Source: a virus
Length of the DNA: 8,526 nucleotides
Virus genome (UHGV): UHGV-1374314
Strand: one strand, 5' to 3'
Position numbers and translations under genes: made by a program. Shown here piece by piece: positions 1,607 to 1,916 of the stretch (the first letter of the stretch is position 1; each line of letters begins with the position of its first letter). The notes below the pieces were generated by a model that was not told the DNA's origin, made no database searches, and saw only the letters and a list, made by a program, of their open reading frames with translations.

Positions 1607-1789
1607 TTAATCCTTTTGTTTGGCAGACATGAGATCTTCTGCTGCATCTTTAGAGTAGTTATCAATCAGATAACCTAAAATCTCTGTCCATGTAATTGTT
1701 TTTCCTAGTTTTACACTGGCATTTATAGCCAGTCGTTCTAGTTTCATTTTTCTTTCTTCCGTCACGTTATAAGTCGTGCGCTTTGCCAT
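1607..1789 (-). CDS. Small putative DNA-binding transcriptional regulator, 60 aa (possible ribbon-helix-helix/Arc-like fold), divergent from gII
   Basis: ORF MAKRTTYNVTEERKMKLERLAINASVKLGKTITWTEILGYLIDNY... shows a short N-terminal strand-like segment followed by helices. Its position and orientation, divergent from the replication gene, resemble repressor genes of integrating inoviruses. Weak RBS. Confidence 0.5.
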   Translation of the reverse strand: MAKRTTYNVTEERKMKLERLAINASVKLGKTITWTEILGYLIDNYSKDAAEDLMSAKQKD

Positions 1790-1916
1790 TTTTTACGCTC
1801 GTTCAATGCAATATTTGAAGTGAGTATACATGCTCATGAACTCATATCATCCAAGCCTCTTGAACTCATTAGCTCACTGGTGTAATGTTAAAACACTAAT
1901 GAACTACTGAACTCAT
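1790..1916. promoter_or_regulatory. Divergent intergenic control region with repeated TGAACT(C/A) motifs (candidate operators/iterons and promoters)
   Basis: TGAACTCAT at 1837-1845, 1861-1869 and 1908-1916, with a variant TGAACTAC at 1900-1907. AT-rich 127-bp spacer between the divergently oriented regulator and gII. Confidence 0.45.

Follow-up and report, generated by a model that had tools for sequence, protein, structure and literature searches.

The 8,526-nt DNA of the UHGV virus genome UHGV-1374314 (hereafter the window) is one unit of an Escherichia coli filamentous (Inoviridae) prophage, in which a 60-amino-acid (60-aa) open reading frame (ORF) and gII, the gene of a replication initiator, diverge from a spacer that carries repeated boxes of the 8-mer TGAACTCA. 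Our conclusion is that the 60-aa ORF very probably encodes a ribbon-helix-helix (RHH) repressor of the small-RstR kind, that the TGAACTCA boxes are its operators, and that the two together form a switch for gII. An earlier note, made from the letters of the window alone, had proposed a divergent small regulator with operators controlling gII, and this proposal is supported by the distribution of the boxes, the boundaries at which the segment is swapped between prophages, the fold of the protein, and its homology with RstR-6 of Vibrio cholerae.

Repeated boxes and predicted divergent promoters

The 9-mer TGAACTCAT is present on the + strand at 1837-1845, 1861-1869, and 1908-1916, with no further exact copy in the window, and the variant TGAACTAC is located at 1900-1907. 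All four repeats lie between the 60-aa ORF and gII, and a search of the window bears out the earlier description in this respect, but not its spacer length of 127 bp. The start of gII is GTG at 1959 rather than the mechanical ORF start at 1917, because the Phage_CRI match begins at residue 1 there, RefSeq agrees, homology to related prophages resumes at 1960, and a Shine-Dalgarno sequence (GAGGA, 1947-1951) precedes it by 7 nt, which gives a spacer of 169 bp (Table 1). At least three non-overlapping copies of any 9-mer within 169 bp were found in 1 of 500 dinucleotide shuffles, and the Poisson probability of at least three copies of the particular 8-mer in the spacer is ~3×10−8. The repeats are thus unlikely to be due to chance, but the 9-mer is not their unit: the ninth base, T, is not conserved, since many near-identical phages have TGAACTCAC at the second repeat (site 2 below), and the unit is therefore the 8-mer TGAACTCA. 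This is a near-palindrome (TGAnnTCA) that differs from its reverse complement, TGAGTTCA, in two central bases only. Moreover, each box has a degenerate neighbor exactly 8 bp away (CATGCTCA at 1829-1836, TTAGCTCA at 1869-1876, and TGAACTAC), and the repeats therefore make up three two-box sites rather than four single ones.

Table 1. Coordinates of the regulator gene, gII, and the control elements around them in the window
Feature	Position	Strand	Remarks
Hairpin	1561..1589	-	13-nt arms, 3-nt loop, then CTTTATT; past the regulator gene, ahead of the next gene leftward
60-aa regulator gene	1607..1789	-	Small-RstR family, predicted ribbon-helix-helix fold; 44% identical to V. cholerae RstR-6
Divergent control region	1790..1958	.	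169 bp; counterpart of CTXphi ig-2; swapped as one unit with the regulator gene
Predicted regulator promoter	1823..1850	-	-35 ATGATA 1850-1845, 16-nt spacer, -10 TATACT 1828-1823
Site 1	1829..1844	+	CATGCTCA (degenerate) + TGAACTCA 1837-1844; presumed autoregulatory operator
Inferred gII promoter	1860..1888	+	-35 TTGAAC 1860-1865, 17-nt spacer, -10 TAATGT 1883-1888
Site 2	1861..1876	+	TGAACTCA 1861-1868 + degenerate inverted TTAGCTCA 1869-1876; presumed main operator
Site 3	1900..1915	+	Tandem TGAACTAC + TGAACTCA; just downstream of the inferred gII transcription start
gII	1959..3011	+	Pfam Phage_CRI 3.6e-71, G2P_X_C 2.3e-29; RefSeq; pII/X family rolling-circle initiator, presumed regulated gene

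The leftward regulator promoter was found by a promoter scanner (9 of 12 consensus matches), and relatives have a -10-like hexamer at the same position. Site 1 coincides exactly with the 16-nt spacer of this promoter, which suggests autoregulation; its box, 41-48 nt from the regulator ATG, is present in 9 of 11 class I spacers and has no counterpart with up to one mismatch in the remaining two (L013 and L044). The putative gII promoter is placed from sequence resemblance, and of nine class I spacers seven have TTGAAC-N17/18-TAnnnT at the corresponding place. Site 2 overlaps the -35 element and spacer of this putative promoter; CCTCTTGAACTCA is kept there in most class I spacers, and in one of them (L029) the site is a perfect 24-bp palindrome, CTCTTGAACTCATGAGTTCAAGAG. 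Site 3 is 43 nt upstream of the gII start codon, at about +5 to +21, where relatives have two to three 8-bp-phased boxes. The only other exact box in the window is at 8350-8365 (TGAGTTCA-A-TGAGTTT), inside a 77-aa ORF (8258-8491) in which it encodes EFNEF, and this could be due to chance or could be a fourth binding site.

If the boxes are operators, one RHH dimer would bind each 8-bp box and adjacent dimers would contact each other, as MetJ does on tandem met-boxes and omega on mixed-orientation heptads. Occupancy of site 2 would shut off the replication initiator and, via gII, the phage genes further downstream. Site 3, which lies early in the transcribed part, would probably reinforce repression, and occupancy of site 1 would result in negative autoregulation of the regulator.

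Boxes are inherited with the small protein and not with pII

Homologs of the 60-aa protein (59-100% identical) were found in Salmonella, Klebsiella, Citrobacter, Brenneria, Phytobacter, Scandinavium, and Providencia. The scan of species-representative genomes covered four such loci only; single-protein scans of viral contigs with P0084, P0078, and P0082 gave no match, and the loci of these three proteins were reached via contigs encoding them. All spacers of the inovirus loci fetched for the homologs bear TGAACTCA or TGAGTTCA, located at about 41-48, 65-72, and 112-119 from the regulator ATG, with adjacent boxes 8 bp apart. Among ten colinear spacers, 43 of the 169 positions are variable, compared with 1 of the 32 box positions (P = 4×10−4, Fisher's exact test), from which it appears that the boxes are under purifying selection. 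It is difficult to reconcile these results with chance repeats, or with mere promoter elements that have no dedicated binding protein. The TTGAAC in box 2 does double as a -35 hexamer, but the boxes are also at non-promoter positions and in both orientations, they exceed what the shuffle tests produce, and they are conserved while their surroundings diverge; contradicted by the comparative data as well, such an origin of the repeats has almost no probability left.

In sister E. coli prophages, whose pII is 86% identical, HTH_3 (helix-turn-helix, HTH) proteins are encoded exactly in the place of the 60-aa ORF, and the spacers are unrelated in sequence and bear no TGAACTCA boxes. Homology between the window and these HTH-type prophages ends at 1598-1617, just past the regulator stop codon, and is found again from 1960, one base beyond the start codon of gII at 1959, and the flanks of the exchanged segment are 80-96% identical. 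By this comparison, the regulator and the spacer are an immunity cassette swapped at gene boundaries, and the cassette would be exchangeable for an RstR-like HTH regulator with its own spacer. A comparable regulator-plus-spacer swap is known for rstR/ig-2 of CTXphi.

Conversely, box-bearing homologous loci carry initiators unrelated to that of the window, either a 371-aa G2P_X_C type (25-35% identical to the window pII) or a Rep_trans protein, and more distant family members pair with further initiator types, such as REP_ORF2-G2P. The regulator is divergent from the initiator gene in every fetched inovirus locus with readable small-ORF neighbors, except in phage If1, where an insertion sequence (IS) separates both genes, and in L048 and L049, where an ORF with an RNase_T domain is the divergent neighbor. 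The earlier note had raised the alternative that the repeats belong to the plus-strand origin recognized by pII. They might serve there as iterons or recognition elements, given that they adjoin gII on its upstream side and that repeats are common in rolling-circle origins. An element of a pII-dependent origin is expected to be inherited with its initiator, but the boxes are absent next to an 86%-identical pII and accompany three other, unrelated initiator families. Because of this double dissociation the origin alternative was rejected as highly improbable. Further against it, the boxes change when the beta-strand of the regulator changes (see below), and the plus-strand origin of CTXphi is in ig-1, not in ig-2.

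Fold and family of the 60-aa protein

The ORF at 1607-1789 can be taken as real; it is annotated as "hypothetical protein" in RefSeq, and PHROGs places the protein in phrog_2503, of unknown function. By an exhaustive profile search, the family to which it belongs comprises at least 63 clusters (50% identity) of 60-70-aa proteins. An AlphaFold2 (AF2) monomer model (pLDDT 81) shows an extended N-terminus and two helices, and the protein fits the strand-helix-helix fold of the RHH (CopG/Arc/MetJ) superfamily. Matches to ParG are weak (4 of 40 family members, best E = 0.055; E = 0.27 in a PDB profile search), and they point the same way. The N-terminal motif KRxTYNVTE, invariant among close relatives, would sit where an RHH protein places its DNA-reading strand. 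This invariance, and the change of the boxes with the strand residues (see below), give indirect support to a dimer whose two-stranded sheet would read short repeated sites.

RHH proteins also serve as antitoxins and as partition or copy-control proteins of the omega/ParG type, in which case the boxes would be an autoregulatory or centromere site rather than a gII switch. Type II toxin-antitoxin systems have a conserved adjacent toxin gene in the operon, but neither a conserved toxin nor a ParA-type partner accompanies the 60-aa ORF, whose constant neighbor is the divergent initiator gene. The genes downstream of it vary (a 140-aa membrane protein in the window and other ORFs in L005, L007, L029, and L013), and the downstream gene of the window is also kept in HTH-type prophages. 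For want of a conserved partner gene, a role as antitoxin or in partition was rejected as very unlikely.

Homology with RstR-6 of V. cholerae

In BLASTP, the 60-aa protein shows 44% identity over 55 aa (E = 4×10−15) with RstR-6 (P0146; UniProt Q9F5W2, "Repressor-like protein"), which was identified as such via the rstR-6 primer sequences in the supplement of PMC11509585. A tblastn search with the window protein also matched the annotated rstR of CTXphi and pre-CTXphi ("environmental RstR"; GQ466611 and KR063268) and the "RstR-like" genes of the Vibrio phages VAI1 and VAI2, and P0125, an environmental RstR closely related to RstR-6, was among the matches of the family profile. An exact search of the viral contigs with the rstR-6 primer found no match, nor did the rstR-calc primer in the phage collection. 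RstR-6 represses its own ig-2 promoter allele-specifically, with lux activity of 1.94×10^4 compared with 2.18×10^5 for the empty vector and 3.7×10^5 to 3.8×10^6 for other alleles (PMC11509585, Table 2, 2024), and the ig-2(6) region has the same three-site layout as the window.

These data bear on the direction of regulation. The small protein might bind the boxes and yet be no maintenance repressor, but activate gII or act on it as a Cro-like anti-repressor, given that the gII promoter appears weak, that some RHH proteins activate, and that no induction mechanism is visible. However, box 2 lies over the -35 element and spacer, which is a repressing position, the homolog RstR-6 represses its promoter, and where the slot is filled by the other cassette, the product is an HTH protein of the CI/RstR-like kind. 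We therefore regard activation as quite unlikely and favor repression of gII by the 60-aa protein.

Two further small alleles of CTXphi, rstR-calc (180 bp) and rstR-5 (204 bp), are equally small, with primer-derived N-termini of MATKHIKDST and MDVSKTSL (PMC11509585 supplement), and RstR-calc and RstR-5 may be of the same RHH family. It was also observed that at the rstR-6 locus of some V. cholerae genomes (L055 and L056) the ig-2(6) spacer upstream of 2001 is 60 bp rather than 137 bp, owing to a deletion that brings the boxes of sites 1 and 3 together and takes out the presumed rstA promoter.

Specificity classes and the case of If1

Wherever the strand residues are TYNV, the boxes are TGAACTCA, also in family members of no more than 48-52% overall identity (L046 and L044) and in a plasmid-like context. 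Where the strand residues differ, the three places are taken by repeated boxes of another sequence, likewise with an 8-bp phase. The strand TTMAI[VT] is found with ATACATGC / TGCATGCA in If1-like phages, TTVSVT with TGAGTAAC in L042, TTISLS with AGGTGAAT in L048 and L049, TTFNIK with TTTTTTAG[CT] in L043, DTTVRIN with GCATGC[AG] in the pre-CTX and VAI phages, and KYTSLRV with TGCATAC / ATACATG at the RstR-6 locus and in V. cyclitrophicus phages; TGAACTCA is absent from every other class examined. These pairings lead us to a tentative proposal, to which we give slightly less than even chances: the small-RstR proteins would be an unrecognized RHH family in which a few strand residues set the 8-bp box, a code that could be read and re-programmed, and the cassette would move as a unit among inoviruses with at least four unrelated initiators and onto plasmids. 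The same reservation applies to its companion claim on If1, that the regulator copy of this phage has been cut off from its promoter and operators by an insertion of the IS200/IS605 type.

In If1 (L041, NC_001954), the "major intergenic region" contains an intact, unannotated member of the repressor family (5122-5310, - strand). An insertion of ~1.8 kb (5311-7131) is located exactly between the regulator ATG and the box-bearing spacer with gII, the latter annotated only as ORF320. The insertion encodes ORF348, a TnpB (OrfB_IS605 and Cas12f1-like TNB) of the IS200/IS605 type, and the If1-like metagenomic phages L034 and L035 are without it. If the claim is true, the classical "non-temperate" If1 would descend from a phage under repressor control and would itself be derepressed.

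Prophage setting and other features of the window

The window is 99% identical to the tandem prophage array of strain HUM3355 and to prophages in 47 complete genomes, and its + strand encodes pII, pV, coat proteins, pIII, Zot/pI, and a secretin. A dif-like site lies at its beginning, and sister prophages adjoin hipBA; the prophage belongs to the CUS-1/YpfPhi group of dif-integrating phages (PMC4266046), in which the slot of the 60-aa ORF is described as the rstR position and the gene there is called RstR-like (PMC4266046). The dif-like site (within 4-72) reads GGTGCGCATAA-TGTACGACTCG-TTATGTTGAAA; its XerC arm is exact and its center 11 nt long. After it come a GC-rich hairpin (GGCCGCTGCG...CGCAGCGGCC) and a T run. 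The prophage probably uses the dif-like site for attachment. A 7,938-bp record from Salmonella enterica filed as a plasmid (NZ_CP140410.1, H90) encodes an identical 60-aa protein, and this is probably the circular replicative form of the same phage type.

A search against Rfam found no family match in the window. A 48-nt stretch (1043-1090) shows 96% identity with If1 5058-5105, and there is otherwise no DNA similarity between both phages. It contains two small hairpins (fold z-score only -1.6), is located at the 3' end of the leftward genes in both phages, and possibly belongs to a packaging signal or a minus-strand origin. The hairpin after the regulator gene (Table 1) is also kept in HTH-type prophages and is possibly a terminator or attenuator. 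In addition, the gII leader repeats at 1924-1946, in direct orientation and with 78% agreement, the 5'-terminal part of the regulator gene (1770-1792), the reverse complement of the leader copy reading IAKMTTY* where the gene reads MAKRTTYN. This copy may have been left behind by a duplication or recombination, or may be where the two divergent mRNAs pair; the antisense duplex of the leader with the 5' end of the regulator mRNA scores only marginally better than shuffled sequences (z = -2.0; 18 of 500 did equally well).

Discussion

Several results weigh against a small-RstR repressor acting on gII through the TGAACTCA boxes. As to the protein, Pfam gave no match at E ≤ 10, a PDB sequence search gave no significant match to any solved RHH protein, Foldseek found nothing significant, no curated RHH sequence family was matched significantly, and the beta-strand is not formed in the monomer model. 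As to the DNA, the inferred gII promoter is weak (7 of 12 consensus matches, below the threshold of the scanner), and the conservation of box 2, of which TTGAAC is also a part, could reflect the promoter rather than an operator. The relation of strand to box is not one-to-one, as several classes share GCATnC-like boxes. LexA control was considered as well, but there is no LexA box with up to one mismatch in the whole window and no cleavage domain in the protein, and no induction route is apparent. Finally, the binding and the repression of gII attributed to the 60-aa protein are deduced from comparison with relatives.

The proposed switch would decide whether CUS-1/YpfPhi-like prophages, which reside at dif in extraintestinal E. 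coli, Salmonella, and Klebsiella, stay quiet or replicate. Knowledge of the repressor and its operators would explain, by heteroimmunity, how tandem and mixed prophage arrays coexist, and would provide simple sequence markers for immunity types. It also ties phages of enterobacteria to the small alleles of rstR by which cholera-toxin phages are typed, and the box layout and strand-to-box pairing offer a directly testable model of DNA recognition by very small repressors.

The HTH regulators RstR-ET and the RstR class of CTXphi and YPO2273 of YpfPhi/CUS-1 occupy the same slot with the same presumed job, but they are about 112-150 aa long, whereas the 60-aa protein is less than half that size and presumably of RHH fold; their spacers are unrelated and without TGAACTCA. 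With CopG (pMV158), MetJ, and omega (pSM19035) the 60-aa protein shares the features of a small RHH protein and short boxes in tandem or inverted orientation: the 8-bp near-palindromic phase recalls the met-boxes of MetJ, the mixed orientations recall the heptads of omega, and CopG controls the gene of a rolling-circle initiator, as presumed here. Unlike these proteins, to which it has no detectable sequence relationship, it is encoded by a divergent gene rather than upstream in the initiator operon, and it is part of a phage immunity cassette. The closest counterparts are RstR-6 and the environmental RstR of CTXphi and pre-CTXphi, which are homologous (44% and 41% identity), 60-64 aa long, and divergent from a rolling-circle initiator gene across a spacer of ~135-170 bp with three sites of repeated boxes; there, too, the regulator-plus-spacer cassette varies between otherwise similar phages. 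The differences from these counterparts are the Enterobacteriaceae host, the initiator (a Phage_CRI pII rather than the Rep_trans RstA), and the box (TGAACTCA rather than TGCATAC / GCATGC). The switch is thus of an ordinary kind, an enterobacterial member of the known small-RstR repressor/operator cassettes of temperate inoviruses. In the literature searched, no report calls small RstR proteins ribbon-helix-helix and none describes their boxes, and the assignment to the RHH fold, the arrangement of the 8-bp boxes, and the correspondence between strand residues and boxes appear to be the new detail that the window adds to these cassettes.
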